Notes: generated from the sequence alone by a model not told the origin. 64,000 nucleotides of DNA from Eledone cirrhosa (GCA_964016885.1 OZ024740.1:38750001-38814000), one strand, 5' to 3'; shown: positions 151-56,395, counted from the first letter of the stretch. Made by a program: numbers and translations.

Positions 151-151
<1 letters not shown>

Positions 152-259
152 GAGAGAGAAAATTGAGGTTGGTAATGGCACATGGAATATATAAGAGACA
201 GAATACTTTTTCGTGAAAAAACATAATTTTATATGGTAAGGAAATAATAAAGGGTATAA

Positions 260-307
260 AAAATGACCGGTTTCGATGGGTCTGCAAAAGCCATCTTTTC
301 AAATGTT
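260..307 (-). ncRNA. Minimal type I hammerhead, U3-A8 variant (inverted copy)
   Basis: Reverse complement of 2380-2427. Confidence 0.55.
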
Positions 308-702
308 GATTAATATTAAGAAAAATTAATAATACGAAGAGTTAAAATTTGAGATTTGAAAATTCAAGTATAAAATTCATTGTGGGATTTCATAGTAGTT
401 TTCATCTAGGTAGCAACAACAAGTTGACTGCTGTGTCCCTTTCTGGTTGTGAATGAGAAGTTATTTGTGGTGTGGGTTATTTTATAAAGGTCAGATTTAG
501 CAATGGCCAACTGGCCAGCTGCTGGTCAGTGAGGGGGTGGAAGCAATATACATACATATATCTTCCTGTGGTGGGTAGGAGAGTGGAGCGTGATAGAAAG
601 GGATTTAGTGCACTTACACCTATATATACACACATACCTTCATCCACTTAAAGATGTAAAAATGAAGTCTATTCTTGAAACACACAAGATCCTTAAAAGT
701 AA

Positions 703-1170
703 ATGACAACCCAAATCACTGGACCAAATATACCCAAACCAATCCTCAACCCTACAGTTACCAAATGTGGTAGAACAAACTGTGGAACGTGCCTCTACCT
801 CACTGAAGGACAAACATTTACATTCAAAGATGGCCAAACATTTACAGTAAAAAACAATTTCACCTGCAACTCGGAGAACTTGATTTACGCAATAATTTGC
901 GGTGCGTGCAAACACAACTACATAGGACAGACGGGCACCTCATTACGCAAAAGAATGACTATCCACCGCCAACAAATCCGGGACGCTAACACAAGAAAAA
1001 TCCCCTTGAGCAGCCATATTGCGAACTGCGCAGGAATGACACTACCCAACTTTAAAATCTTCCCCTTCTACAAGTGCTCAGATTCGTTCACACAGCAACA
1101 AAGAATAAACAAAGAAAATCTATTCCTTAACAAATTTAAACCAAAACTAAACGGGTTATCACCCCAATAG
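703..1170 (+). pseudogene. PLE C-terminal Cys-rich linker + GIY-YIG endonuclease fragment (Neptune-like linker)
   Basis: KCGRTNCGTC...FTCNSENLIYAIICGACKHNYIGQT...R...H...H...E...LN; RT is missing. Confidence 0.85.
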
Positions 1171-1459
1171 AATTGTCATAAAATATAAACACACATACGC
1201 ACGGAATCACTACTATTAAAGACCAGAGACCAATTCTGTAGAATCAGGTTTATTCGTCGACAGACCATGCCTTTGTGTGACCAACACATCCATGTTAAAC
1301 CCTGCACGTGCACACACATATATCTATATATATATATATGCGCACACAGAATTCACCACTGTCGGTTGCGGGGCCCAATCTACATGAAGAACTCAATGTG
1401 ATCAGAATGACTTGTATTTTAATTTCACTATCCCAACTTCTTATATTATGGAAAAAATA

Positions 1460-1762
1460 TATCTGTATGTATGTATATATATACATATATTTGGAGGCCA
1501 TTTCTCTGTGTGTGGGTGTATGTATGTGTATATGTGTATGTGTGTGCATGTGGATGTATGTATTGTGTGTGCGTGTGTGTGTGTGTGTGTTTATGTATGT
1601 GTGTATCTGGATGTATGCGTATGTGTATATATATATATATATGTGTGTGTGTATATATGTGTGTGTATGTGTATATATATGTGTGTGTGTGTGTATGTTT
1701 GTATGTGTGTATGTATATATATATATATGTATATATATGTGTGTGTGTGTATGTATGTGTGG

Positions 1763-1796
<34 letters not shown>

Positions 1797-1869
1797 GTGT
1801 ATATATATATGTGTATATATATATGTGTGTGTGTGTGTATGTATCTGGATGTATGTGTATGTATATATA

Positions 1870-1902
<33 letters not shown>

Positions 1903-2066
1903 GTGTGTGTATGTGTATATATATGTGTGTGTGTGTGTATGTGTGTATGTATATGTATGTGTGTGTGTGTATGTATGTGTGTATATGTATATATATATAT
2001 ATATATGTATATGTGGATGTATATGTATATGTATGTATGTGTGGATGAATGTATGTGTGTATATAT
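1460..2066. repeat. Compound (TA)/(TG)/(TATG) microsatellite inside the PLE 3' UTR
   Basis: Direct reading. Confidence 0.95.
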
Positions 2067-2379
2067 AGGTGTAAGTGCACTAAATCCCTTTCTATCACGC
2101 TCCACTCTCCTACCCATCACAGGAAGATATATGTATGTATATTGCTTCCACCCCTCACTGACCAGCAGCTGGCCAGTTGGCCATTGCTAAATCTGACCTT
2201 TATAAAATAACCCACACCACAAATAACTTCTCATTCACTACCAGAAAGGGACACAGCAGTCAACTTGTTGTTGCTACCTAGATGAAAACTACTATGAAAT
2301 CCCACAATGAATTTTATACTTGAATTTTCAAATCTCAAATTTTAACTCTTCGTATTATTAATTTTTCTTAATATTAATC

Positions 2380-2427
2380 AACATTTGAAAAGATGGCTTT
2401 TGCAGACCCATCGAAACCGGTCATTTT
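2380..2427 (+). ncRNA. Minimal type I hammerhead, U3-A8 variant
   Basis: aacat TTGAAAA gatgg-cttttgcagac-ccatc GAAA ccgg TC atttt; palindromic ccgg in stem III; stem I has one mismatch. Confidence 0.6.
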
Positions 2428-2577
2428 TTATACCCTTTATTATTTCCTTACCTTATAAAATTATATGTTTTTTCACAAAAAAGTATTCTGTCTCTTATAT
2501 ATTCCATGTGCCATTACCAACCTCAATTTTCTCTATAACCTTCGTTTTATGTAGAAAATTACACTTTTCATATAATA

Positions 2578-6484
<3,907 letters not shown>

Positions 6485-7178
6485 ACAGCAAGTGCCCCAA
6501 AATACTAGCTCTTTCAATTGCACAGAGGGTTCTATAGAAATAGTGGACAGCTTCCGTTACCTGGGTGACAAAATCACCAGTGGGGGAGGGTGCTCCGAAA
6601 GTACAGTAGCTAGAGTCAGAACTGGATGGAAAAAGTTCAGAGAGCTTATACCACTATTAGCCGCTAAAGGGTTCTCCCTAAAAGTGAAAGGCAGGTTGTA
6701 CGATGCCTGCATACGAACAGCAATGTTGCATGGCAGTGAGACCTGGGCATTGTGTGCAGAGGATATACGCAGACTAGAGAGGAACGAAGCTTGCATGTTC
6801 CGCTGGATGTGTAATAGTAATATACGTGAACGGCAAAGCATAAACGAACTAAGGAAACAATTAGAAATAAGAGGGATCAGATGTTGTTTACTCGAGAGAA
6901 GGCTACGTTGGTATGGTCACGTGATGCGCATGAAAGACGACAACTGTATAACAAAGTGCAGGGCAATAAAGATAGACGGTAGCCACGGAATAGGCAGACC
7001 TAGAAAAACCTGGGACGAGCTGATAAATTCCGACCTCACACACTTACACCTCTCCAAGACAATGTCACAGGACCGAGAGCTTTGGCGGTACTCAGTAATA
7101 GAGAAGAGCCGCCTTACCTAAATACAAAGTAAAACCTACTAGTCAGTAGGCATCTCTAACAAAATACATAACTTTACA
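6485..7178 (+). mobile_element. 3' fragment of RTE-clade LINE (ORF remnant 6492-7121), tail-to-tail with the long copy
   Basis: FRYLG...LRWYGHVMRM...GRPRKTW; highly similar but not identical to the C-terminus of 7277-9394. Confidence 0.92.
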
Positions 7179-7276
7179 TAGAACGGGGTGGTGTGGATGG
7201 GGTGGGGGTGGTGGCGGTGGGACGGGGTGTATTTTGTTAGTGATGCCTACTGGCTGGAGTAGGTTTTACTATATAT

Positions 7277-9494
7277 TTAGGTAAGGCGGGTCTTCTCTGT
7301 TACTGAGTACCGCCAAAGGTCTCGGTCCAGTGACATTGTCTTGGTGAGGTGTAAGTGTGTGAGGTCGGAGTTTATCAGCTCGTCCCAGGTTTTTCTAGGT
7401 CTGCCTATTCCGTGACTACCGTCTATCTTTATTGTCCTGCACTTTGTTATACAGCTATCGACTTTCATGCGCATCACGTGTCCATACCAACGTAGCCTTC
7501 TCTCGAGTAAACAACATCTGATCCCTCTTATCTCTAATTTTTTCCTTAGTTCGTTTATGCTTTGCCGTTCACGTATATTACTGTTACACATCCAGCGGAG
7601 CATGCAAGCCTCGTTCCTCTCTAGTCTGCGTATATCCTCTGCACACAATGCCCAGGTCTCACTGCCATGCAACATTGCTGTTCGTATGCAGGCATCGTAC
7701 AACCTGCCTTTCATTTTTAGGGAGAACCCTTTAGCAGCTAATAGTGGTATAAGCTCTCTGAACTTTTTCCAACCAGTTCTGACTCTAGCTACTGTACTTT
7801 CAGAGCACCCTCCCCCACTGCTGATTTTATCGCCCAGGTAACGGAAGCTGTCCACTATTTCTATAGAACCCTCTGCGCAATTGAAAGAGCTAGTATTTTG
7901 TGGGCACTTGCTGCTACTTATTGCACCAGAACACCGGCCACATGTAAAATCTATGTTCTTAGTTAGCTTACCTGTGATTCCACTACATCTTTTATGCACC
8001 CATACTTTGCATTTAGGACATAAAATGGAGTTTCTACCTACGCCTTTCCTACACACTGAGCATGGCCACTTGCCGGAATGGACCGTCGCCTTATTTTCTT
8101 TCCTACAAACTAGAACTTTAGTCTTAGCCAGGTTAATTTTAAGTCCTTTTGATTCTAGGCCGTGCTTCCATGTTTGGAATTTCTTCTCTAGTTCGGTCAT
8201 TGATTCAGCTATGAACGTTAGGTCGTCTGCGTATAGGAGTTCCCATGGGCAGCCTGTCTTGAACTCCTCTGTTATAGCCTGAAGGGCAATAATAAATAGT
8301 AGGGGGCTGAGAACAGAGCCCTGATGGACGCTAACTTTTACGCTAAACTCTTCACTATATTCGTTGTTAATTCTAACCTTGCTGACTGTTTCTTTATACA
8401 TGGCTTGTATAGCCCTCACAAGCCATTCGTCAACGCCTAGTTTTCTAAGAGCCCACCAGATAATGGAGCGGGGGACTCTGTCGAAGGCTTTCTCCAAGTC
8501 GACAAAAGCTAAGTAGAGGGGTTTACCTTTAGCTAGGTACTTCTCCTGTAGTTGTCGTACTATGAAAAGAGCGTCTGTGGTACTTTTACCTGACACAAAC
8601 CCGAACTGCATTTCATCTAGGTCAATTCGCTCTCTGATTAGTTGCGCTATTACTTTTTCCGTGACCTTCATGACCTGGTCGATTAATTTAATGCCTCTAT
8701 AGTTGCTCCTATCTAGGGCGTCTCCTTTACCCTTATAACAGTTAACGATGATGCTGCTATGCCAGTCCTTCGGAACAACCCCATTCTGTACGACTTGGTT
8801 AACTATGCGGGTGACCATGGTGTGTCCCACCGTGCCAGATGCCTTCAGCATCTCAGCAACTATTTCCGAAGGCCCAGCCGCCTTACCCGTCTTCATATCC
8901 TTGATTGCCTTACTTATTATACTCCCCTCGACTAACACTGCTGGTCCCTCTATTGGGTCGATATGGGGGAGACTGTCTTTCTCCCATTTATTCTCCTCAT
9001 TTAGTAGTCTTTCATAGTGACACTTCCAAGCTACCTTCTTATCAGTGTCGGTGATGGCAAGTATGCCATCATCGTTAAGTACACACTTCTCCCCGACAAT
9101 ATCACGGTTTTCCTTGACGCATTGCCTAGCAATCCTGAACACCTCACGTTTTTGGTCATCGCGTTGTAGAACATGCTTGAACTTTCTTTCCTCAGCTTCC
9201 CTTCTTGCTAAGTACACTTCTCTCCTAGCTTCCCTCCTAGCCACTTGATAGTCTACTCTACTTCCCCCATCCCGCCATACTTTCCAAGCCTGCTTTTTGG
9301 CCTTAATTGACCCCTCCACCTTACTGTTCCACCACCATGTTACTCTCCTCCTGCCTACAGGCCTGCTCCAGCCACAGACTTCGTCTGTCGCCAACAGCAG
9401 GTTTGCTTTCAGAAATTCCCACTGTCCCTCTATATTGTCCGACTCTAAATGTTCTTCCTTACTGTCGAAGGCATCAAGTAATATGCTTTGAAAT
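7277..9494 (-). pseudogene. RTE reverse transcriptase with inserted PHD-like Cys/His finger
   Basis: NYRGIKL, QFGF, FVDLEKAFDRV, HQGSVLSP, LYADD, CSVC...CPKC...HKRC...CGRC, FRYLG, GRPRKTW. Confidence 0.93.
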
Positions 9495-10547
9495 TTATTT
9501 ATTTCTGGCTGTGGGGTCCTTTAGCTTCCATATTTTTCTCCTGAGGATAGTCCTCTTCTGCTGTCGAGTACGTCTCGTCCTGACTATGAGGTCGCTAATT
9601 ATCAGTCTATGTTGGGAGGTGCATTCTTCATGGGGGAGGGATTTAGTGTTTACAACAGACACTCTGTCACGTCTTCTGGTAAGGATATAATCTACCTGGC
9701 TTGTGTGTTCCCCGGATCTATAGGTGATCAGGTGATTGTCACGTTTTTTGAAGTTAGTGTTACAGATAGTTAGGTTATTTGCATCACAGAATTCCAGGAT
9801 TCTGGAGCCTTCCTCATTTCTAGTACCAAACCCATAGCCTCCATGGATTTCGTCGTAGCCGTCACAATGTTGTCCAACGTGACCATTTAGGTCGCCTGCA
9901 ATAATTATATAGTCACTGTCAGATATTTGGGAGGTAGTTAGCAACAGTGTCTCATAGAATCTGTCTTTTATAGTGCCGGGCAGTCCGGATTGGGGTGCGT
10001 ACGCTGATATTACTGTCACCGTAGTTCTATTGAGGACAAGTCGTATTTTAATTATTCTGTCGTTCACTCTATTTACGTCTATTATCTTATCTGCCCACTT
10101 TTCTGCTACCATGATTCCTACTCCACCCAGCCCATCGTCGTTTCCCACCCAGAAAAGCTTATAACATCGTTTTTTACCCTCAATGAATCTAGCAGACCCA
10201 CCCCTCCACCTGGTCTCTTGAATACAACAAACATCGACCTCCTTACGTTCAAGCATTTCTACAACCTCGTTAGCGCGACCCTTTAGGGTGCCTACATTTA
10301 TGGTACCAACTCTGAAGTTTTGGATTGCGTTTGGGGGGTGGGGGCGGTGGGGGGCGGGGGGAGATGGGGTTATGTTAGCCATCCGCGGACGAAACAAAGA
10401 GGAGTGCTCGCATTCTCGTCCACGAGGTGAATTTGACTTTAACTTTGGCATTTTCGCTCTGAGCGTCCAGATTTTTCTCTCCCTTCCACTCTCCAGGATT
10501 CCGCAGTCCGTCCATCCATCCATCCATCCATCATATATCAAAGGCAA
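9495..10547 (-). pseudogene. RTE apurinic-like endonuclease (EEP) domain
   Basis: TINVGTL, CIQETRW, SAYAP, GDLNGHVG, QVDYIL, SQHR; the true start is probably downstream of 10547. Confidence 0.92.
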
Positions 10548-10569
10548 CCGGGCAAGCGATAGTATAGGC

Positions 10570-10700
10570 CTCTGGCTTATGATTGGTCCGCGTAATAATA
10601 ATAATGGTGATGCGTGGGGGGGGGGGGTCTCTGGCTTATAATAATAATGGTGATGCGTGGGGGAGGGCTCTGGCTTATGATTGGTCCACGTATTAAGAAT
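10570..10700. repeat. Short imperfect tandem repeats in the RTE 5' UTR
   Basis: ctctggcttat x3, ataataatggtgatgcgtgggg x2, gattggtcc x2. Confidence 0.7.
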
Positions 10701-11239
10701 GGTGGTGTGTGGAGGTGGGTGGGAGGGGTGTGGGGTAGCTAGCTGGAAGGTTATGAATGTTTAACAAGCGATTAACAAAAAGCAAAACTGCAAGATTTGT
10801 TCTGTTCAATACGACAAAAACAACCGTATTTAAACCTAAATAAATAACAAAAAATACAGATTTCGGATTTTGCGAGATTGGATGTTTGGACTATGTACGA
10901 AATTGGAGCGTGGAGTAGATAGAAAAATGTGTACGTTACGATTACATGGGCACACCGTAGTAGGAATAATTGAAGCAGCAATGGATTGGATAAAGTGAAT
11001 AAACATAAAGGGGAATTTATCTTATATATATATATATATGTGTAGCTAAGAGAGAGAGAGAGGGGAAGGGGAAGAGAGAGAGGGGGGAAGAGGGAGAGAG
11101 AGAGTGGCTGACCGCTGCCCCTCGTGTGAAGTAGATGGAGGGTGAAGGGTGTAGAAGCGGGATTTTTTGACTTTCGAAGTAGCATAATATATATATTTAA
11201 AGGAATTTATAAGAAGTAGAATGGGAAGGATTTTATATA

Positions 11240-13666
<2,427 letters not shown>

Positions 13667-13670
<4 letters not shown>

Positions 13671-13880
13671 TTAATTTTATAGAAGGAGCTTCTACAGGTC
13701 TAGTACTGTTTCATTCAGATGAAATCTTCAGGAAATCTCCAGGCGCTTCCTGAAGATTTCATCTGAATGAAACAGTACTAGTCCTGTAGAAGCTCCTTCT
13801 ATAAAATTAAAAAATTTTACTCTGCCATGTATTGAGTACCTTACTTACTGTGGTTATCCCCGACTCAACCCGGGACCTAC

Positions 13881-13881
<1 letters not shown>
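13667..13881 (+). mobile_element. Miniature fold-back PLE remnant: 68-bp inverted arms, 12-nt spacer, ~67-nt tail
   Basis: Arms at 13667-13734 / 13747-13814; tail homologous to the reverse complement of 20331-20395 (gtattgagtaccttacttactgtggtta). Confidence 0.82.
13745..13793 (+). ncRNA. Type I hammerhead ribozyme (mirror copy on the minus strand at ~13688-13736 with weaker stem I)
   Basis: gcttc CTGAAGA tttc-atct-gaat GAAA cag-tactagtc-ctg TA gaagc. Confidence 0.82.
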
Positions 13882-13937
<56 letters not shown>

Positions 13938-14226
13938 CAAATAACGAAACGAAATTAAATTTTGTTTCGTTTGTAACTCACTTTTGTATGACTGACGCTT
14001 AAACAATTAAGTTAAAGATGTACATCCATATATGTATACTGAAATACTAGTATGTATATGAATACACACACGTATACATATGTAGATGTACCAAGTTTTT
14101 TCACTGGTCACTTTACTGTGAGTGGCCAGCTATTCTGTATGTAAACACACAGACAAACCGGTTTTTAGAGTCATACTGGTTTTTGAGGAAACACCTTTCC
14201 TCTATTCTCCAGAAAGCCAGACAAGG

Positions 14227-14271
14227 AATATTGAACTAGTTTCGTTGTTGTTACAACTCATCAGCAATATT
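14227..14271 (-). ncRNA. Minimal type I hammerhead of the 467-bp unit (also 14693-14737, 15160-15204, 15627-15671, 16094-16138, 16561-16605)
   Basis: Minus strand: aatattg CTGATGA gttg-taacaa-caac GAAA ctag TT caatatt; 7-bp stem I, 4-bp stem II, palindromic ctag, GUU triplet. Confidence 0.9.
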
Positions 14272-14330
14272 TACCTATCTTCCGGCCTCTCTAGAGAATC
14301 GTAAAAGCACATAGCGTTATATGCTTTTTC

Positions 14331-14365
14331 TATGAAAATTAGTAGTGGGCAGACTAATTTGCATA
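14331..14365. promoter_or_regulatory. Octamer dyad ATGAAAAT...ATTTGCAT in each 467-bp unit
   Basis: tatgaaaattag-tagtgggcaga-ctaatttgcata; conserved in the 508-bp unit at 55260-55295; function is inferred. Confidence 0.4.
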
Positions 14366-16906
14366 GAGTGTGAGTAAGTACCGGTTCAGCGGAGACGATA
14401 AAAACAAATAACGAAACGAAATTAAATTTTGTTTCGTTTGTAACTCACTTTTGTATGACTGACGCTTAAACAATTAAGTTAAAGATGTACATCCATATAT
14501 GTATACTGAAATACTAGTATGTATATGAATACACACACGTATACATATGTAGATGTACCAAGTTTTTTCACTGGTCACTTTACTGTGAGTGGCCAGCTAT
14601 TCTGTATGTAAACACACAGACAAACCGTTTTTAGAGTCATACTGGTTTTTGAGGAAACACCTTTCCTCTATTCTCCAGAAAGCCAGACAAGGAATATTGA
14701 ACTAGTTTCGTTGTTGTTACAACTCATCAGCAATATTTACCTATCTTCCGGCCTCTCTAGAGAATCGTAAAAGCACATAGCGTTATATGCTTTTTCTATG
14801 AAAATTAGTAGTGGGCAGACTAATTTGCATAGAGTGTGAGTAAGTACCGGTTCAGCGGAGACGATAAAAACAAATAACGAAACGAAATTAAATTTTGTTT
14901 CGTTTGTAACTCACTTTTGTATGACTGACGCTTAAACAATTAAGTTAAAGATGTACATCCATATATGTATACTGAAATACTAGTATGTATATGAATACAC
15001 ACACGTATACATATGTAGATGTACCAAGTTTTTTCACTGGTCACTTTACTGTGAGTGGCCAGCTATTCTGTATGTAAACACACAGACAAACCGGTTTTTA
15101 GAGTCATACTGGTTTTTGAGGAAACACCTTTCCTCTATTCTCCAGAAAGCCAGACAAGGAATATTGAACTAGTTTCGTTGTTGTTACAACTCATCAGCAA
15201 TATTTACCTATCTTCCGGCCTCTCTAGAGAATCGTAAAAGCACATAGCGTTATATGCTTTTTCTATGAAAATTAGTAGTGGGCAGACTAATTTGCATAGA
15301 GTGTGAGTAAGTACCGGTTCAGCGGAGACGATAAAATCAAATAACGAAACGAAATTAAATTTTGTTTCGTTTGTAACTCACTTTTGTATGACTGACGCTT
15401 AAACAATTAAGTTAAAGATGTACATCCATATATGTATACTGAAATACTAGTATGTATATGAATACACACACGTATACATATGTAGATGTACCAAGTTTTT
15501 TCACTGGTCACTTTACTGTGAGTGGCCAGCTATTCTGTATGTAAACACACAGACAAACCGGTTTTTAGAGTCATACTGGTTTTTGAGGAAACACCTTTCC
15601 TCTATTCTCCAGAAAGCCAGACAAGGAATATTGAACTAGTTTCGTTGTTGTTACAACTCATCAGCAATATTTACCTATCTTCCGGCCTCTCTAGAGAATC
15701 GTAAAAGCACATAGCGTTATATGCTTTTTCTATGAAAATTAGTAGTGGGCAGACTAATTTGCATAGAGTGTGAGTAAGTACCGGTTCAGCGGAGACGATA
15801 AAAACAAATAACGAAACGAAATTAAATTTTGTTTCGTTTGTAACTCACTTTTGTATGACTGACGCTTAAACAATTAAGTTAAAGATGTACATCCATATAT
15901 GTATACTGAAATACTAGTATGTATATGAATACACACACGTATACATATGTAGATGTACCAAGTTTTTTCACTGGTCACTTTACTGTGAGTGGCCAGCTAT
16001 TCTGTATGTAAACACACAGACAAACCGGTTTTTAGAGTCATACTGGTTTTTGAGGAAACACCTTTCCTCTATTCTCCAGAAAGCCAGACAAGGAATATTG
16101 AACTAGTTTCGTTGTTGTTACAACTCATCAGCAATATTTACCTATCTTCCGGCCTCTCTAGAGAATCGTAAAAGCACATAGCGTTATATGCTTTTTCTAT
16201 GAAAATTAGTAGTGGGCAGACTAATTTGCATAGAGTGTGAGTAAGTACCGGTTCAGCGGAGACGATAAAAACAAATAACGAAACGAAATTAAATTTTGTT
16301 TCGTTTGTAACTCACTTTTGTATGACTGACGCTTAAACAATTAAGTTAAAGATGTACATCCATATATGTATACTGAAATACTAGTATGTATATGAATACA
16401 CACACGTATACATATGTAGATGTACCAAGTTTTTTCACTGGTCACTTTACTGTGAGTGGCCAGCTATTCTGTATGTAAACACACAGACAAACCGGTTTTT
16501 AGAGTCATACTGGTTTTTGAGGAAACACCTTTCCTCTATTCTCCAGAAAGCCAGACAAGGAATATTGAACTAGTTTCGTTGTTGTTACAACTCATCAGCA
16601 ATATTTACCTATCTTCCGGCCTCTCTAGAGAATCGTAAAGCACATAGCGTTATATGCTTTTTCTATGAAAATTAGTAGTGGGCAGACTAATTTGCATAGA
16701 GTGTGAGTAAGTACCGGTTCAGCGGAGACGATAAAAACAAACGAAACAAAATTTAATTTCGTTTCGTTATTTGTTTTTATCGTCTCCGCTGAACCGGTAC
16801 TTACTCACACTCTATGCAAATTAGTCTGCCCACTACTAATTTTCATAGAAAAAGCATATAACGCTATGTGCTTTTACGATTCTCTAGAGAGGCCGGAAGA
16901 TAGGTA

Positions 16907-16951
16907 AATATTGCTGATGAGTTGTAACAACAACGAAACTAGTTCAATATT
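16907..16951 (+). ncRNA. Minimal type I hammerhead in the inverted arm of the array (also 17374-17418)
   Basis: aatattgCTGATGAgttgtaacaacaacGAAActagTTcaatatt read directly. Confidence 0.9.
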
Positions 16952-17866
16952 CCTTGTCTGGCTTTCTGGAGAATAGAGGAAAGGTGTTTCCTCAAAAACC
17001 AGTATGACTCTAAAAACCGGTTTGTCTGTGTGTTTACATACAGAATAGCTGGCCACTCACAGTAAAGTGACCAGTGAAAAAACTTGGTACATCTACATAT
17101 GTATACGTGTGTGTATTCATATACATACTAGTATTTCAGTATACATATATGGATGTACATCTTTAACTTAATTGTTTAAGCGTCAGTCATACAAAAGTGA
17201 GTTACAAACGAAACAAAATTTAATTTCGTTTCGTTATTTGTTTTTATCGTCTCCGCTGAACCGGTACTTACTCACACTCTATGCAAATTAGTCTGCCCAC
17301 TACTAATTTTCATAGAAAAAGCATATAACGCTATGTGCTTTTACGATTCTCTAGAGAGGCCGGAAGATAGGTAAATATTGCTGATGAGTTGTAACAACAA
17401 CGAAACTAGTTCAATATTCCTTGTCTGGCTTTCTGGAGAATAGAGGAAAGGTGTTTCCTCAAAAACCAGTATGACTCTAAAAACCGGTTTGTCTGTGTGT
17501 TTACATACAGAATAGCTGGCCACTCACAGTAAAGTGACCAGTGAAAAAACTTGGTACATCTACATATGTATACGTGTGTGTATTCATATACATACTAGTA
17601 TTTCAGTATACATATATGGATGTACATCTTTAACTTAATTATATATATATATATAACTATATATATTTAACTGTATATATATATAAATATATATCTATAT
17701 AAATATATATCTATATAACTATATATCTATATAACTATATATATATATATAAATATATATCTATATAACTATATATCTATATAACTATATATCTATATAA
17801 CTATATATCTATATAAATATATATATATATAAATATATATATATATAAATATATATATATATAAAT

Positions 17867-18025
17867 ATATTGTTATACTTTGGGAGGGTCATGTTGCCAA
17901 TAAGAAACACATGCACCAGGTGCTTGTGTTTCTTATTGGCAACATGACCCTCCCAAAGTATAACAATATCGGTTTCAACACACGATTTCAGATAAAGAAT
18001 CTTGCTAAACAAATTCAGAAACGAA
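17867..18025 (+). mobile_element. Miniature fold-back PLE terminus (51-bp arms, 1-nt loop at 17918, ~56-nt tail)
   Basis: Right arm and tail homologous to the PLE end at 48539-48612 (atgaccctccc...taacaatat...acacacgatttca). Confidence 0.78.
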
Positions 18026-19432: not shown

Positions 19433-19591
19433 ATATTGTTATACTTTGGGAGGGTCATGTTGCCAATAAGAAACACACGCACCAGGTGCGTGTGTTTCTT
19501 ATTGGCAACATGACCCTCCCAAAGTATAACAATATCGGTTTCAACACACGATTTCAGATAAAGAATCTTGCTAAACAAATTCAGAAACGAA
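19433..19591 (+). mobile_element. Second copy of the miniature fold-back PLE terminus
   Basis: Near-identical to 17867-18025; palindrome centred at 19484. Confidence 0.78.
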
Positions 19592-20330: not shown

Positions 20331-20413
20331 CGTTATTCCGGGTTGAATCGGAGGTAACCACAGTAAGTAAGGTACTCAATACATAGCAGAGTATAATAGT
20401 TTTAATATAGATG

Positions 20414-20464
20414 AGATTCTACAGGACTAGAACTGTTTCATTCATTAGAAATCATCAGGAATCT
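20414..20464 (-). ncRNA. Type I hammerhead in the left pLTR arm
   Basis: Reverse complement of 28650-28700. Confidence 0.82.
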
Positions 20465-20989
20465 GGGTATCAAAAAATAAATATGGTATTTATAGGTCTC
20501 TACAAGTGGTAGGAGAGGGTGGGGAGTGGGATGGGTGCAGGTCATTGGTTGATAGAGAAGGGAATTCATTAAAGGCTAATTCTACATAGCTATAGTTAAT
20601 TTATATTTATTTATGTTTTTAGAGTAACAAAGGCAGACAGAAATCTATAAACAAGTTCCGGATGGCATACCATTCCTTGTCAATAAGTTTCTCTTAAGCT
20701 AGCAGATGTCTATAAAATCAGTAGGGGGTCATTCATGCTCGATAGAATTAAAGAAAAGGGGGATTCTTTAAAAGCTAAAGTCATTAAGTTCTGCTAAGTG
20801 ACAAAGGTCTAGGGAATTCTGCAGACAGATTCAAAATACTGAGTGCATATCTTACTATTATCTTCGAACTTCTCCTAAACTAATCAACAATATGCCAAAT
20901 CAACAGACACATTCACAAAAAAACAAAAAAACCCCAAAAAAACCCCAAAAAACAGAAAAACAAAAAAAACCACACCTAAAAAAAACCAA

Positions 20990-21191
20990 AAAAACACACA
21001 TACTCACTCACACACTTACGCGCAACCATAAACACACACATAAACACAAATACACACATAAAAACACACACACATATATAAAAAAAGTATATAAATATAT
21101 ACAAATATATATTCATGTACACGCACATACATACACACATACATACATACATACATATATAAAATACATATACACATATACATACGCACAC

Positions 21192-21289
<98 letters not shown>

Positions 21290-21456
21290 CACACACATAT
21301 ACATATATATACATATACATATATATACACACACACATACATATACACACATACACATACATATATATATATATACACACATACACACACACACACATAC
21401 ATACATATATATATACATATACATATATACACACATACATATATATACACAAATAT

Positions 21457-21493
<37 letters not shown>

Positions 21494-21674
21494 CATACAT
21501 ATATATATATACATATACATATATATATATATATATACACACACACACGGATACACACACACATACACATACATACACACATACACACAAATATATATAC
21601 ACAAGTAAATACACTCACACGCATACATACAAACACGAGTATACATATGTATAAATATCTATACACACACACAT

Positions 21675-21731
<57 letters not shown>

Positions 21732-21844
21732 CATATACACACATACATACACACACACATACACATATATACACATACACACACATATATACATATATAT
21801 ACATATATATACATACAAATATACATATATATACATACACATAT

Positions 21845-21877
<33 letters not shown>

Positions 21878-22137
21878 CACAAATACATACATACACACAC
21901 ACACACATACATACATATATATATATATCTCTCTAAATACACACATACAAATACATATATATATATATATACATATATATACACATGCATATATATATAT
22001 ATATATATACACATATATATATATATATACACATATCCATACATACACAAACATACACATGCATACACAGACCTATACATAAATATACACATATATATAC
22101 AGAGATATAACGCACAAATACACACACATATATACAT

Positions 22138-22197
<60 letters not shown>

Positions 22198-22230
22198 GCA
22201 TACACACACACATACACACACACATATATG

Positions 22231-22265
<35 letters not shown>

Positions 22266-22334
22266 GCGTGCATACACACATACACACACCCACACACAAA
22301 ATATATATACACACACACATTCTCTCTCTCATGC

Positions 22335-22425
<91 letters not shown>

Positions 22426-22506
22426 CACACACATATACACATACATATATGTATGTACATATACACAGACACATACAAATACATACATACACACACATAC
22501 ACATAC

Positions 22507-22549
<43 letters not shown>

Positions 22550-22710
22550 TATACATATATATATATATATACGCGCATGCATATACACATACATATACAT
22601 ATACATACACATACGTACATACACACACACACATATATGTACATATACACTCACAAATACACACACAAACACACAGATATACAAATACATACACACAAAC
22701 ACATACATAT

Positions 22711-22755
<45 letters not shown>

Positions 22756-22792
22756 CGCACACATATACACACATACACACGCACACGCACAC

Positions 22793-22833
<41 letters not shown>

Positions 22834-22848
22834 CATACACATACATAT

Positions 22849-22888
<40 letters not shown>

Positions 22889-23084
22889 ATATATACACAC
22901 ATACACACACATATATATACACATATACACATACACATACACATACATATACATATATACACATATATACACAGACAAATATATACACACATACACATAT
23001 ACAAACATACATATACATACACATACATACACACACACATATACATACACATACAAATACATACATATACATATATATATATAT

Positions 23085-23121
<37 letters not shown>

Positions 23122-23480
23122 CACACACATACAAATACATACATACACACACATACATACATACATTTACATACATACACACACATACATACATACATAC
23201 ATACATAAATACAGACACATACAGACATATACCTGCATAAATATACACACATAAAACACGTATTCACACAAACATATATATATATATATACACATACATA
23301 CATACACACACACATATACATATATATATATATATATACATATAAATATATATACATATATATATATATACACATACACATACATATATATATACACACA
23401 CAACACATACACATATACACATATACAGACAAATATATACACATACAAGTAAATAGGTACTCAATAAATATACGCATATA
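20990..23480. repeat. Compound (CA)/(TA)/(CATA) microsatellite carried in the PLE 3' UTR (mirror at ~25620-28120)
   Basis: Direct reading. Confidence 0.95.
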
Positions 23481-23625
23481 CACAGGCACATAAAGACACC
23501 TCTACAGGGAGAAAAAGTAGATACAAAAGAGGTACTCACATGACCATAGTGGCCGTATTTCAGGTTGAGGAGGGGTGGGGGTAGGGTGGGGAGGAGGTAT
23601 AGGGGCCAATAGGGGGAGGTCGTTT

Positions 23626-24098
23626 TTAGCCATCGGGCTTTAACACTGGCTTAAAGTGTTTGAATGTTGCAAAGTTCTTGTGCATGCAGTTCGGGCAGTG
23701 TTCAGAGAGTTTGTTCAGTAGCGGGCCCTTGGCGAACAAAATTTCGTAACTCTCTGAGATACAAAGGTCGCAGCCCTTGTGTCCTCCGTCGTAAGAGCGC
23801 GCTTTCTGGAGTATTTTCCAATTAAGCGTGAAGGGGGTGGAGTTCCTTTTGAGGTCCCAAACGTAGGAGGCGAGTGTTGTTTGGTTTGATTTATCCGGTC
23901 TTCTGAAGGAGTGGGTATGGGCATACCAGCGGGTCTTAAAGGTGTTGGATGTCATGCCGATGTAAGTTTTTTTGCAATCCTCGGTGCCCAAGCTATTCCT
24001 CCTCTGCAATTTTGCGGTGGTTTCTAGGTAAGTTATCTTATCTTTAAATCCGCTACGGGCTAGGGCGTCATTGTAGTAGGAGGCAGATGCATTAAAAA
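23626..24098 (-). pseudogene. Inverted, internally deleted copy of the PLE thumb/GIY-YIG region
   Basis: QRRNS|LGTEDCKKTYIG joins the reverse complements of ~24676-24782 and ~25111-25476. Confidence 0.85.
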
Positions 24099-25476
24099 AA
24101 CTACTATGCCTCTATCTCGGAGCCCCTCCTGAAGGACGCAATTAACTTTGCCAGGAATTTTACCACCATTACCGATGCCGAGCAAGTTATTATCCTCCAC
24201 GCTCGTAAGACCTTTCTATACCACGATGGATCTTACTGGATCAACAAGAAATCTCAGACCCCATTTGACGTTAGCATGGGGGCGAGTGACTCGGCTGAAA
24301 TTAGCGACCTAGTGGGCCTGTACATCCTACATAACCTGAAGAACCTCTTTACCGGCCTTACTGGAGGTTTATACCGAGACGACGGCCTCTTCGCCCTGCA
24401 TAAGGTTAGCCCCAGAACCACCGATGGGTTTCGGAAAAACTTAAGCTCTTTCTTCTCTAATCTAGGATTTAGTATTACTATAGATTCTAATTTGACTAGG
24501 GCCAACTTCTTAGATGTCACTCTCGACCTAGATACTTCCCTCTATTACCCGTACCACAAACCTAACGAGTCCCTTAAATATATTAATGTTAATTCAAACC
24601 ACCCCCAAAACATTACTGATAACCTAGTAAAAAGCGTCTCTATTAGAATATCTGGCCTCTCCGCCAACAAAGATATTTTTAATGCATCTGCCTCCTACTA
24701 CAATGACGCCCTAGCCCGTAGCGGATTTAAAGATAAGATAACTTACCTAGAAACCACCGCAAAATTGCAGAGGAGGAATAGACATAGGCAGATTAGCTGG
24801 TACAACCCTCCCTTCAATAGAGAGGTATCTACTCCGATAGCTAGGATTTTCTTCACTTTACTGAAATTACACTTCCCCATACAACATAGGTACTACACCA
24901 TCTTTAATAAGAACACTATAAGACTGTCTTACTCCACCACACCTAACCTAGCTAGGAATATAGCCAACCACAACTCTAAACTAAATAAGCCAACCACCTC
25001 CGAAACCAATCCCCGGACTGGGGCTCTATGTAATTGCCTAAATAAGGAAACATGCCCACTAGAAAACAAATGCCTCACAAACGACATCGTATACAAATGC
25101 GATGTCATCTCGGGCACCGAGGATTGCAAAAAAACTTACATCGGCATGACATCCAACACCTTTAAGACCCGCTGGTATGCCCATACCCACTCCTTCAGAA
25201 GACCGGATAAATCAAACCAAACAACACTCGCCTCCTACGTTTGGGACCTCAAAAGGAACTCCACCCCCCTTCACGCTTAATTGGAAAATACTCCAGAAAG
25301 CGCGCTCTTACGACGGAGGACACAAGGGCTGCGACCTTTGTATCTCAGAGAGTTACGAAATTTTGTTCGCCAAGGGCCCGCTACTGAACAAACTCTCTGA
25401 ACACTGCCCGAACTGCATGCACAAGAACTTTGCAACATTCAAACACTTTAAGCCAGTGTTAAAGCCCGATGGCTAA
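24099..25476 (+). pseudogene. PLE RT (YRDD type) + Cys linker + GIY-YIG; 5'-truncated, frameshift at the C-run ~25265
   Basis: MGASDSAEISDLVG, LYRDDG, NFLDVT, WYNPPF, CNC..CPL..CL, IVYKC...YIGMT. Confidence 0.9.
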
Positions 25477-25972
25477 AAACGACCTCCCCCTATTGGCCCC
25501 TATACCTCCTCCCCACCCTACCCCCACCCCTCCTCAACCTGAAATACGGCCACTATGGTCATGTGAGTACCTCTTTTGTATCTACTTTTTCTCCCTGTAG
25601 AGGTGTCTTTATGTGCCTGTGTATATGCGTATATTTATTGAGTACCTATTTACTTGTATGTGTATATATTTGTCTGTATATGTGTATATGTGTATGTGTT
25701 GTGTGTGTATATATATATGTATGTGTATGTGTATATATATATATATGTATATATATTTATATGTATATATATATATATATATGTATATGTGTGTGTGTAT
25801 GTATGTATGTGTATATATATATATATATGTTTGTGTGAATACGTGTTTTATGTGTGTATATTTATGCAGGTATATGTCTGTATGTGTCTGTATTTATGTA
25901 TGTATGTATGTATGTATGTGTGTGTATGTATGTATATGTATGTATGTATGTGTGTGTATGTATGTATTTGTA

Positions 25973-26017
<45 letters not shown>

Positions 26018-26213
26018 ATATATATATATATGTATATGTATGTATTTGTATGTGTATGTATATGTGTGTGTGTATGTATGTGTATGTATATGTATGTTTG
26101 TATATGTGTATGTGTGTATATATTTGTCTGTGTATATATGTGTATATATGTATATGTATGTGTATGTGTATGTGTATATGTGTATATATATGTGTGTGTA
26201 TATATGTATATAT

Positions 26214-26257
<44 letters not shown>

Positions 26258-26272
26258 ATATGTATGTGTATG

Positions 26273-26313
<41 letters not shown>

Positions 26314-26350
26314 GTGTGCGTGTGCGTGTGTATGTGTGTATATGTGTGCG

Positions 26351-26401
<51 letters not shown>

Positions 26402-26562
26402 ATATGTATGTGTTTGTGTGTATGTATTTGTATATCTGTGTGTTTGTGTGTGTATTTGTGAGTGTATATGTACATATATGTGTGTGTGTGTATGTACGTA
26501 TGTGTATGTATATGTATATGTATGTGTATATGCATGCGCGTATATATATATATATATGTATA

Positions 26563-26605
<43 letters not shown>

Positions 26606-26686
26606 GTATGTGTATGTGTGTGTATGTATGTATTTGTATGTGTCTGTGTATATGTACATACATATATGTATATGTATATATGTGTG

Positions 26687-26775
<89 letters not shown>

Positions 26776-26844
26776 GCATGAGAGAGAGAATGTGTGTGTG
26801 TATATATATTTTGTGTGTGGGTGTGTGTATGTGTGTATGCACGC

Positions 26845-26879
<35 letters not shown>

Positions 26880-26912
26880 CATATATGTGTGTGTGTATGT
26901 GTGTGTGTATGC

Positions 26913-26974
<62 letters not shown>

Positions 26975-27234
26975 ATGTATATATGTGTGTGTATTTGTGC
27001 GTTATATCTCTGTATATATATGTGTATATTTATGTATAGGTCTGTGTATGCATGTGTATGTTTGTGTATGTATGGATATGTGTATATATATATATATATG
27101 TGTATATATATATATATATATATGCATGTGTATATATATGTATATATATATATATATGTATTTGTATGTGTGTATTTAGAGAGATATATATATATATGTA
27201 TGTATGTGTGTGTGTGTGTATGTATGTATTTGTG

Positions 27235-27267
<33 letters not shown>

Positions 27268-27380
27268 ATATGTGTATGTATATATATGTATATTTGTATG
27301 TATATATATGTATATATATGTATATATGTGTGTGTATGTGTATATATGTGTATGTGTGTGTGTATGTATGTGTGTATATG

Positions 27381-27433
<53 letters not shown>

Positions 27434-27559
27434 ATGTGTGTGTGTATAGATATTTATACATATGTATACTCGTGTTTGTATGTATGCGTGTGAGTGTATT
27501 TACTTGTGTATATATATTTGTGTGTATGTGTGTATGTATGTGTATGTGTGTGTGTATCC

Positions 27560-27593
<34 letters not shown>

Positions 27594-27618
27594 GTATATG
27601 TATATATATATATGTATG

Positions 27619-27652
<34 letters not shown>

Positions 27653-27824
27653 TATATTTGTGTATATATATGTATGTGTGTATATATGTATATGTATATA
27701 TATATGTATGTATGTGTGTGTGTGTGTATGTGTGTATATATATATATATGTATGTGTATGTGTGTATATGTATGTGTGTGTGTATATATATATGTATATG
27801 TATATATATGTATATATGTGTGTG

Positions 27825-27922
<98 letters not shown>

Positions 27923-28649
27923 GTGTGCGTATGTATATGTGTATATGTATTTTATATATGTATGTATGTATGTATGTGTGTATGTATGTGCGTGTACATG
28001 AATATATATTTGTATATATTTATATACTTTTTTTATATATGTGTGTGTGTTTTTATGTGTGTATTTGTGTTTATGTGTGTGTTTATGGTTGCGCGTAAGT
28101 GTGTGAGTGAGTATGTGTGTTTTTTTGGTTTTTTTTAGGTGTGGTTTTTTTTGTTTTTCTGTTTTTTTGGGTTTTTTTGGGGTTTTTTTGTTTTTTTGTG
28201 AATGTGTCTGTTGATTTGGCATATTGTTGATTAGTTTAGGAGAAGTTCGAAGATAATAGTAAGATATGCACTCAGTATTTTGAATCTGTCTGCAGAATTC
28301 CCTAGACCTTTGTCACTTAGCAGAACTTAATGACTTTAGCTTTTAAAGAATCCCCCTTTTCTTTAATTCTATCGAGCATGAATGACCCCCTACTGATTTT
28401 ATAGACATCTGCTAGCTTAAGAAAAACTTATTGACAAGGAATGGTATGCCATCCGGAACTTGTTTATAGATTTCTGTCTGCCTTTGTTACTCTAAAAACA
28501 TAAATAAATATAAATTAACTATAGCTATGTAGAATTAGCCTTTAATGAATTCCCTTCTCTATCAACCAATGACCTGCACCCATCCCACTCCCCACCCTCT
28601 CCTACCACTTGTAGAGACCTATAAATACCATATTTATTTTTTGATACCC

Positions 28650-28700
28650 AGATTCCTGATGATTTCTAATGAATGAAACAGTTCTAGTCCTGTAGAATCT
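28650..28700 (+). ncRNA. Type I hammerhead in the 3' pLTR
   Basis: agattc CTGATGA tttc-taat-gaat GAAA cag-ttctagtc-ctg TA gaatct. Confidence 0.85.
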
Positions 28701-28719
28701 CATCTATATTAAAACTATA

Positions 28720-30866: not shown

Positions 30867-31333
30867 GTAGGAGGTGAGTTTTATTGTAGTACAATAAAGC
30901 AAGCAGGTATCGGATAAGAAGCACTCTACAGTTTGTAGGACTGGATTATACATAATATATAAGATCAAAAGATGGTTAAAAGAGTTCCATGTATTTTATT
31001 ACGCGCATTTCAAAAACAAATATCATCATGCAATAACATTTGTGTTTTCAACAGATAAAAAGGGAAGGCATGATATGAAGGTTAAAAACACTTGTGGATA
31101 GTGCAGTTTTAAATCAACATATAAAGGTTAAAAACACTTGTGGATAGTGCAGTTTTAAATCAACATATGTTGATTTAAAACTGCACTATCCACAAGTGTT
31201 TTTTAACCTTCATATCATGCCTTCCGTTTTTATCTGATGAAAACACAAATGTTATTGCATGATGATATTTATTTTTGAAATGTGCCTAATAAAATACATG
31301 GAACTCTTTTAACCATCTTTTGATCTTATATAT
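30867..31333. mobile_element. Non-coding fold-back pLTR-like element centred at 31166/31167; ~46-bp tandem duplication in the left arm; ~85-nt tail at left
   Basis: caacat|atgttg centre; arms at ~30953-31166 / 31167-31333; HHR-like motif in each arm. Confidence 0.75.
31228..31294 (+). ncRNA. Degenerate hammerhead (mirror at 30994-31060 on the minus strand has CTGTTGA and stem III tgcgcg)
   Basis: ttttat CTGATGA aaacacaaatgttat...ttt GAAA tgtgcc TA ataaaa. Confidence 0.55.
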
Positions 31334-31396
31334 TATAAATATATATATATATATAAATATATATATATACATAAATATATATAAATATATATATAC

Positions 31397-56026: not shown

Positions 56027-56395
56027 TATACATACAGGTACACATACATATATGTACGTATCAGTTTAGCGGACGCTTATTATAGCGCCCGCTTTGTTCG
56101 TTTGTAAACAAACTGAACAGCCTGAATTTATGCCGCACGGTGTTAAGGCAACCACGTCACCTTTTTGTTCAACACTGACACAGGAACGATGTACTAGTTT
56201 CAAGCTTGTTAGCTATCATCAGCACCGTATAACCATCTGCCAGATAGTTGAACGTTCGAAAGTATATACTTTCCTTATGAAAATTAACGGCTGAGCAGCC
56301 TAATTTGCATATCGAGTGAGTTAAATCGGTCAGGCGCACCGAAAACGATGAGTTGTAATAAAATGAAAACGAAATTTCATTTCTCACTCTTAGTA
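54827..56395 (-). repeat. 508-bp hammerhead-containing tandem array (candidate retrozyme): 3 units + 45-nt terminal redundancy
   Basis: Units start at 54827, 55335 and 55843, with a partial unit at 56351-56395; near-identical, including the internal microsatellite. Confidence 0.93.
55170..55212 (-). ncRNA. Minimal type I hammerhead of the 508-bp unit (also 55678-55720, 56186-56228)
   Basis: Minus strand: acggtg CTGATGA t agct-aaca-agct t GAAA ctag TA catcgt. Confidence 0.85.

Follow-up and report, generated by a model that had tools for sequence, protein, structure and literature searches.

A dispersed non-coding hammerhead retrozyme in Eledone cirrhosa inserts as head-to-head palindromes with two fixed ends and is likely integrated in trans by PLE enzymes

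The window analyzed in this study, a stretch of 64,000 nucleotides from Eledone cirrhosa (GCA_964016885.1 OZ024740.1:38750001-38814000), is a succession of (TA)n tracts carrying inserted retroelements. One of these tracts, with its left flank at 13882-13930 and its right flank at 17641-17870, is the target of an insertion composed of two arms of a tandem repeat with no coding capacity. The long (forward) arm (13931-16741) possesses 6.02 tandem units of 467 nt, with the hammerhead sense on the minus strand and the RNA 3' end at 13931, the distal site (unit position 1). The inverted arm (16737-17640) contains 1.94 units identical in sequence to the long arm, with the hammerhead sense on the plus strand and ribozyme cores at 16914 and 17381. 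Since the hammerhead sense is outward in both arms, the layout is head-to-head. The outer end of the inverted arm pairs with 14005 and lies at unit position 75, the proximal site, so the 74 nt of 13931-14004 are found on one side only. This minus-strand tail, which would be the stretch between two RT start sites, includes a hairpin at unit positions 7-44 (13937-13974, minus strand) predicted from sequence and folding. Both arms share ACAAA at 16737-16741, a 5-nt junction microhomology at the base of the unit hairpin; the junction is known from the assembly. Mapping confirmed the ends given in the original prediction, namely an array 3' end at 13931 and an inverted arm that reaches 17640 and lacks the last 74 nt.

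Every unit carries a type I hammerhead with a short palindromic stem III, located at 14211-14282 (minus strand) in unit 1, and all of the cores in the array (8/8) are intact. A full-length match to Rfam HH9 was obtained (37.7 bits, E 9.6e-08), which is under the gathering score of 52; the Rfam search at gathering level returned 0 matches for the 467-nt array. The cut is predicted after GUU, between 14234 and 14233 (unit position 304/303). Folded in isolation, the hammerhead did not exceed shuffled sequences in stability (z -1.5). No ORF of at least 150 aa was found in the array, and none of at least 120 aa inside the arrays of 21 entries. The RT plus GIY-YIG ORF of an autonomous PLE is absent from the 467-nt family, here named family A. 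Its features are those of a non-LTR retrozyme: a type I hammerhead in every tandem unit, neither a protein-coding frame nor the layout of an LTR element, dispersed copies on many contigs, and target duplications of more than 4 bp at three informative sites. Outside the hammerhead, the block best conserved between family A and a second ribozyme repeat of the window, family B, lies at 16790-16850 and holds ATGCAAAT (16814-16821, plus strand), which we take to be the octamer of snRNA-type promoters. On its sequence, this block is a candidate internal promoter ~100 nt upstream of the ribozyme.

Four coding PLEs are found in the same window. A truncated Neptune-type element (151-2576, plus strand) has a GIY-YIG domain with a CX4CxxC linker, an inverted arm and a tail of ~42 nt (2535-2576). 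The element at 20331-28718 displays Hydra-clade motifs (DKT, CxCX5C), inverted arms and a 65-nt tail (20331-20395); other copies possess a 758-aa ORF, and DKT is found in that full ORF. The element at 38042-41811 (plus strand) has a CxCX5C linker (Hydra-type), an inverted arm and an 87-nt tail (41725-41811), and the one at 46343-48619 (minus strand) has an RT, a CX4CxxC linker, an inverted arm and a 55-nt tail (48565-48619). As originally predicted, all four share the asymmetry of the ribozyme array, with tails (~42, 65, 87 and 55 nt) that differ in length, and coding PLEs of this genome show the same distal/proximal end pairing. Clade labels rest on motifs from the covered part of PMC8557442, because a homologue search with the Neptune-type ORF gave RT/GIY-YIG relatives that lack clade names.

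Several further elements were observed beside these PLEs. A very young and abundant Neptune-type family (L091-L096) possesses an intact 784-aa ORF and a 39-nt tail; a simple pattern search found no canonical hammerhead inside it. The 3' UTR of the 20331-28718 element contains a (TA)/(CA) microsatellite of ~3 kb that is present in both arms. By eye, the Hydra-type tails of the elements at 20331, 38042, 59989 and 30868 share a small ACTC...GAGT stem just past the proximal site, a candidate RT-start signal which family A resembles loosely. Tiny non-coding tailed palindromes are located at 13666-13881 (86% like the end of the 20331 element), 17867-18023 and 19433-19589 (like the end of the 46343 element), 50659-51120 (like the end of the 38042 element) and 30868-31338, and look like minimal PLE derivatives from the same two-site priming. 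RTE, CR1-like and L1-like elements are present as well; a minus-strand RTE-type LINE occupies 6489-11232, and a partial copy on the plus strand is attached to it tail-to-tail at ~7170-7205.

In the 3.0 Gb genome, one 22-mer of the young subfamily of family A has 2,901 exact matches. The family comprises about two thousand scattered insertions. Most are head-to-head palindromes, in which one outer end lies at unit positions 1-7 (distal) and the other at 69-76 (proximal), two fixed sites ~70 bases apart. Three samples were mapped: 20 top-match loci, 18 end-blind loci and 75 distal-anchored entries. The end-blind sample consists of every other locus (18) represented in the first 100 matches listed for the 22-mer, with ends ignored in the choice. 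Among these listed matches, 14 of 18 loci have one distal (1-7) and one proximal (69-76) outer end, twelve of them two-armed and two (L051, L056) in which the second arm is very short; none of the 18 lacks an end at the distal or proximal site. The exceptions are L060, which is proximal at both ends, L061, with an irregular end, and L067 and L069, in which a proximal end is combined with a foreign other half; L035 and L146 are further exceptions to the end rule.

Each of the 75 distal-anchored entries was fixed on a TA-flanked distal end, and 43 of the 44 inverted arms that end at TA stop at unit position 70-76, with 0 at position 1 (binomial p 5e-75). Other sequence follows the inverted arm in four of the 75, one of which stops at 69 in impure TA. 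Twenty-four of the 75 were scored single-armed, several of them carrying a second arm of just 8-24 nt, and three ran beyond the stretch examined. L105 and L106, probably one duplicated insertion, were both included in the counts. Seven long loci were extended; five closed at 1/70 or 1/75 and two were still open past 31 and 34 units, and one mis-parsed locus, once closed, also fits the distal/proximal rule. Genome-wide, TA+distal junctions number 1002 and 981 per strand, and TA+proximal junctions number 1047 on the strand free of overlapping matches, whereas TA followed by an internal control 17-mer was found 0 times. The ends of other copies are thus fixed rather than random and no poly(A) is present at mapped family A ends, the outcome that the original prediction had called for. 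An inverted arm with a one-end tail between two fixed sites, and insertion into (TA)n or AT-rich DNA without poly(A), are features of PLE-mobilised sequence.

Short-read contigs of run X1, which possibly comes from the assembly's own sample, contain TA loose ends at positions 1 and 70 (5 and 4 contigs, respectively). No strand-changing joint is listed among the contigs of two short-read runs, and two Hi-C runs from another organism yielded 0 mapped reads. Single arms of more than 30 units (>14 kb) were observed at L129+L205, L143+L206 and L203+L074, and family A therefore also builds satellite-sized arrays. Runs X1-X20, filed under many organism codes, contain part of the 467-nt repeat; with mapping limited to X1 and X4, a wide host range is a lead only. 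No RNA run is among those listed as containing the repeat, which says nothing about its expression.

The automatic scan for target duplications was uninformative at TA flanks. Read by eye, three copies whose sites are irregular or not TA carry duplications that fit a length of 9-13 bp, with short stretches at either end that match the element. LINE-type target-site duplications had been named in the original prediction as evidence against PLE-type insertion, yet PLEs themselves make duplications of 8-10 bp according to the covered part of PMC3846280, and this argument falls away.

The inner breakpoints of family A are scattered and copy-specific. Only one junction pair is shared among 62, by two loci 18 kb apart, so the palindromes were made anew at each insertion and not copied. 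Eight of the 62 junctions are nearly symmetric and 54 are asymmetric. Among 46 resolved junctions, 18 display microhomology of 2-8 nt, 9 are blunt or have a single nt in common, and inserted bases occur in 19, a count possibly inflated by old mutations; random joins reach at least 2 nt of microhomology in 18% of cases. The original prediction had placed the inversion at ACAAA next to the unit's hairpin. The 5-nt microhomology at the hairpin base stands, but location in the hairpin is no more frequent than chance: it was observed for 15 of 124 inner ends where 10.1 would be expected (p 0.08) and for 10 of 100 in another count (p 0.30), and the hairpin was rejected as the cause of inversion. Run-off at the ribozyme cut was not supported, with 5 of 124 inner ends near position 303 (p 0.06-0.26).

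Both arms of one locus derive from one haplotype. The arm-to-arm difference within a locus has a median of 0.005 and exceeds 0.03 in 0 of 62 cases, as compared with 0.0435 between loci. Among 25 loci with at least three full units, 22 different fixed haplotypes were found, and in the young locus L053 all units (17/17) are identical. These fixed haplotypes and identical units are compatible with a one-unit bottleneck, e.g. a circle. L058, L074 and L135 display repeating patterns of unit variants, which implies that later exchange or multimer templates, and not one circle, account for some of the array length.

Family B is represented in the window by a single-armed copy of 3.08 units of 508 nt with its own hammerhead (54827-56392, minus strand). 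It is homologous to family A (global score 144.5, as compared with at most 5.5 for shuffled sequences), and its core pattern has 14,181 matches genome-wide. Of 20 loci, 13 yielded both ends, one near position 1 and the other at 56-66; in the remaining seven the probe located one end or none. Family B carries the same two-fixed-end signature as family A, and a fold comparison places a hairpin like that of the 467-nt unit tail close to its distal end. Further B-like subfamilies were observed at L044, L116, L084 and L033, L044 being an A/B chimeric array; they suggest a larger superfamily of ribozyme repeats.

Head-to-head palindromes with two fixed ends are a PLE mark, and thus PLE enzymes likely copy the 467-nt repeat into the genome. 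We interpret 13931-17640 as the insertion of a dispersed non-coding non-LTR retrozyme, likely integrated in trans by a PLE RT and GIY-YIG endonuclease. PLE-type insertion of ribozyme RNA in trans, as first proposed from the window, is well supported by the other copies; the role given to the hairpin and the pairing with a PLE of the same window are not. For this autonomous/non-autonomous pair, no homology to the PLE ends was detected, tail lengths differ, and chimeras come from several families including RTE.

The helper was sought by homology: families A and B were compared, in 40 alignments with shuffled controls, with ten end regions of coding elements, namely those of the window PLEs, the young 784-aa Neptune-type family and the window RTE, a sample of the PLE families of the genome; the best z was 2.1. 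The only matches at 30 GIY-YIG loci, most of them Neptune-type, were of low complexity or came from B copies nearby. The tail length of 69-74 nt has no exact counterpart among the tested PLEs, and clustering of TA-adjacent ends yielded tail lengths for other families, none of which matches family A. Chimeric second arms contain pieces of Neptune-type (L090, L117), Hydra-type or Hydra-like (L125, L069), E4-like (L107) and RTE (L048, L067, L125) elements. As these arms come from several families, no helper is named; the chimeras could be template switches, or deletions between neighbours. Intact Hydra-type and Neptune-type ORFs are abundant in the genome, so the enzyme is plausibly available.

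The 467-nt unit might instead be the pLTR of an unseen autonomous PLE, with the arrays as truncated cis products or derivatives. PLE pLTRs do carry type I hammerheads and occur in tandem, TE matches, nearly all to PLEs, exist for 24 of the 57 retrozyme families of Xenopus (bioRxiv 10.64898/2026.07.22.740005, portions covered), and the search for a parent PLE covered a sample of families. However, the mapped loci show unit after unit, in runs that can exceed 34 copies, the pieces of PLE ORF joined to arms at L090 and L125 are head-to-head and not upstream in the same sense, and the tested PLE ends are without homology to the unit. We therefore regard a pLTR origin as improbable.

Mobilisation of the RNA by a LINE (RTE, CR1 or L1/Tx1), with the inversion as ordinary twin priming, is very unlikely. 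In L1 twin priming, the internal sites are variable, whereas the second primer of family A is at a fixed site. RTE, CR1-like and L1-like elements do occur in the window, three chimeras have RTE pieces, two family A copies end in RTE-like (TCA)n tracts, and target duplications exist. But neither poly(A) nor a shared LINE tail, by which a LINE-mobilised SINE is recognised, was found in the 467-nt family, the window RTE ends are without homology to it (CR1 and L1 ends were compared by window self-BLAST only), and the pattern matches that of the neighbouring coding PLEs.

A DNA-level process, in which the array is a foldback or MITE-like element, a Helitron-type repeat or a local satellite rearrangement, is largely refuted and retains little probability. 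Its appeal lies in the inverted outer ends in TA, the tandem arrays, the 3' hairpin, signs of later unit exchange and the nearly symmetric minority of junctions. MITE, foldback and Helitron elements are copied whole, with a constant interior, and have symmetric TIRs or, in Helitrons, TC and CTRR ends. In contrast, TC/CTRR ends are absent from family A, its junctions are copy-specific, its inverted ends show a constant offset of 69-74 nt, and target duplications are present. Finally, although palindromes within TA-rich DNA are difficult to assemble and the junction described here comes from an assembly, a fold-back read or assembly artefact is hardly credible, since it would not halt at position 69-76 in 43 of 44 loci, asymmetric junctions and target duplications would be unexpected from it, and the run X1 contigs show both fixed ends.

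Integration in trans by PLE enzymes could proceed as follows. A PLE enzyme, probably dimeric, would nick both target strands with a stagger of ~9-13 bp. A single species of retrozyme RNA would then serve both target 3' ends as template, with priming at the distal site by one and ~70 nt inward by the other. The two cDNAs would traverse several units, likely around a ribozyme-made circle, and repair would join them head-to-head via microhomology or short inserted bases. In the parts of PMC11167929 covered here, purified Poseidon protein acts on both strands of AT-rich DNA, cutting and extending each, RT begins at two internal RNA sites whose spacing is that of the tail, the tail is termed unique to PLEs, and the PLE protein is predicted to be dimeric. 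Family A behaves as those parts predict, and we add that the ends are paired, one distal and one proximal.

Tentatively, and with slightly less than even confidence, we propose a more specific form, in which a PLE dimer sits on one 467-nt ribozyme circle and both active sites fire together from two sites ~70 nt apart, one per target strand, the two multi-kilobase cDNAs being sealed head-to-head. The retrozyme would be recognised by RNA shape and not by shared sequence, possibly by several PLE families. If this holds, the one-distal/one-proximal rule would be the footprint of the dimer and would explain the inverted-repeat-plus-tail structure of all PLEs. The origin of PLE tandem and inverted structures and tails is named as open in the passages covered of PMC8557442, and antisense self-priming was proposed in those of PMC3846280; the one-distal/one-proximal rule favours sense-RNA priming from both target strands over the latter. 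Being short and non-coding, with its start sites mapped, family A lends itself as a template to the in vitro assay already available for PLEs.

Non-LTR retrozymes were defined in PMC7229834 (Cervera and de la Pena 2020), which, in the portions covered, presents PLEs as a strong candidate helper. The retrozyme-PLE link was argued from co-occurrence and pLTR homology in the covered text of bioRxiv 10.64898/2026.07.22.740005 (Li et al. 2026), whose main text, so far as covered, is free of the words 'tail', 'palindrom' and 'inversion'. According to the covered part of PMC7761336, no conserved motif points to a retrozyme helper. The inverted arm and tail of PLEs and the non-autonomous Chlamys elements are described in PMC8557442, and mobilisation in trans is shown in PMC3846280, again in the parts covered; retrozymes are unmentioned in the covered passages of PMC13282606. 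No report of this insertion anatomy for retrozymes was found in the literature searched, mostly open-access main texts. The earlier case for the enzyme that spreads animal retrozymes consisted of shared ribozymes, co-occurrence and pLTR homology only, whereas the PLE footprint is now seen in the retrozyme insertions themselves, in two families and at thousands of sites.

The 467-nt family is a new member of the retrozymes and provides strong structural evidence for the proposed PLE link. Like the animal non-LTR retrozymes in the covered portions of PMC7229834 and bioRxiv 10.64898/2026.07.22.740005, it has non-coding tandem units of low GC with one type I hammerhead each, dispersed multimers, target duplications of more than 4 bp and co-occurrence with PLEs. 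Its unit of 467 nt slightly exceeds the range of 150-450 bp given in 2020 and is inside that of 51-972 bp given in 2026. It differs in being mostly head-to-head palindromes with two fixed ends, which are undescribed for retrozymes in the main-text portions covered of either paper, and in showing no pLTR homology among the PLE regions compared, whereas 21 of the Xenopus TE matches in the 2026 paper have it. As in the trans mobilisation of Chlamys MRC1 and that driven by pLTRs in Adineta vaga (PMC8557442, PMC3846280, parts covered), non-coding or foreign sequence is moved, often as head-to-tail multimers; those cases share 3' sequence or pLTRs with the autonomous family, whereas none was detected for family A, which carries a canonical hammerhead instead. 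With the EN+ PLEs (Hydra, Neptune, Poseidon) of the covered parts of PMC8557442, PMC3846280 and PMC11167929, family A shares the inverted 5'-truncated arm, the one-end tail, the (TA)n microsatellite target, duplications of 8-13 bp and a hammerhead in the terminal region. Unlike them, it lacks an ORF and forms pure multimers that can exceed 34 units, and its tail is 69-74 nt, as compared with the 30-40 bp usually quoted for EN+ PLEs and the 39-87 nt of the coding PLEs found here.
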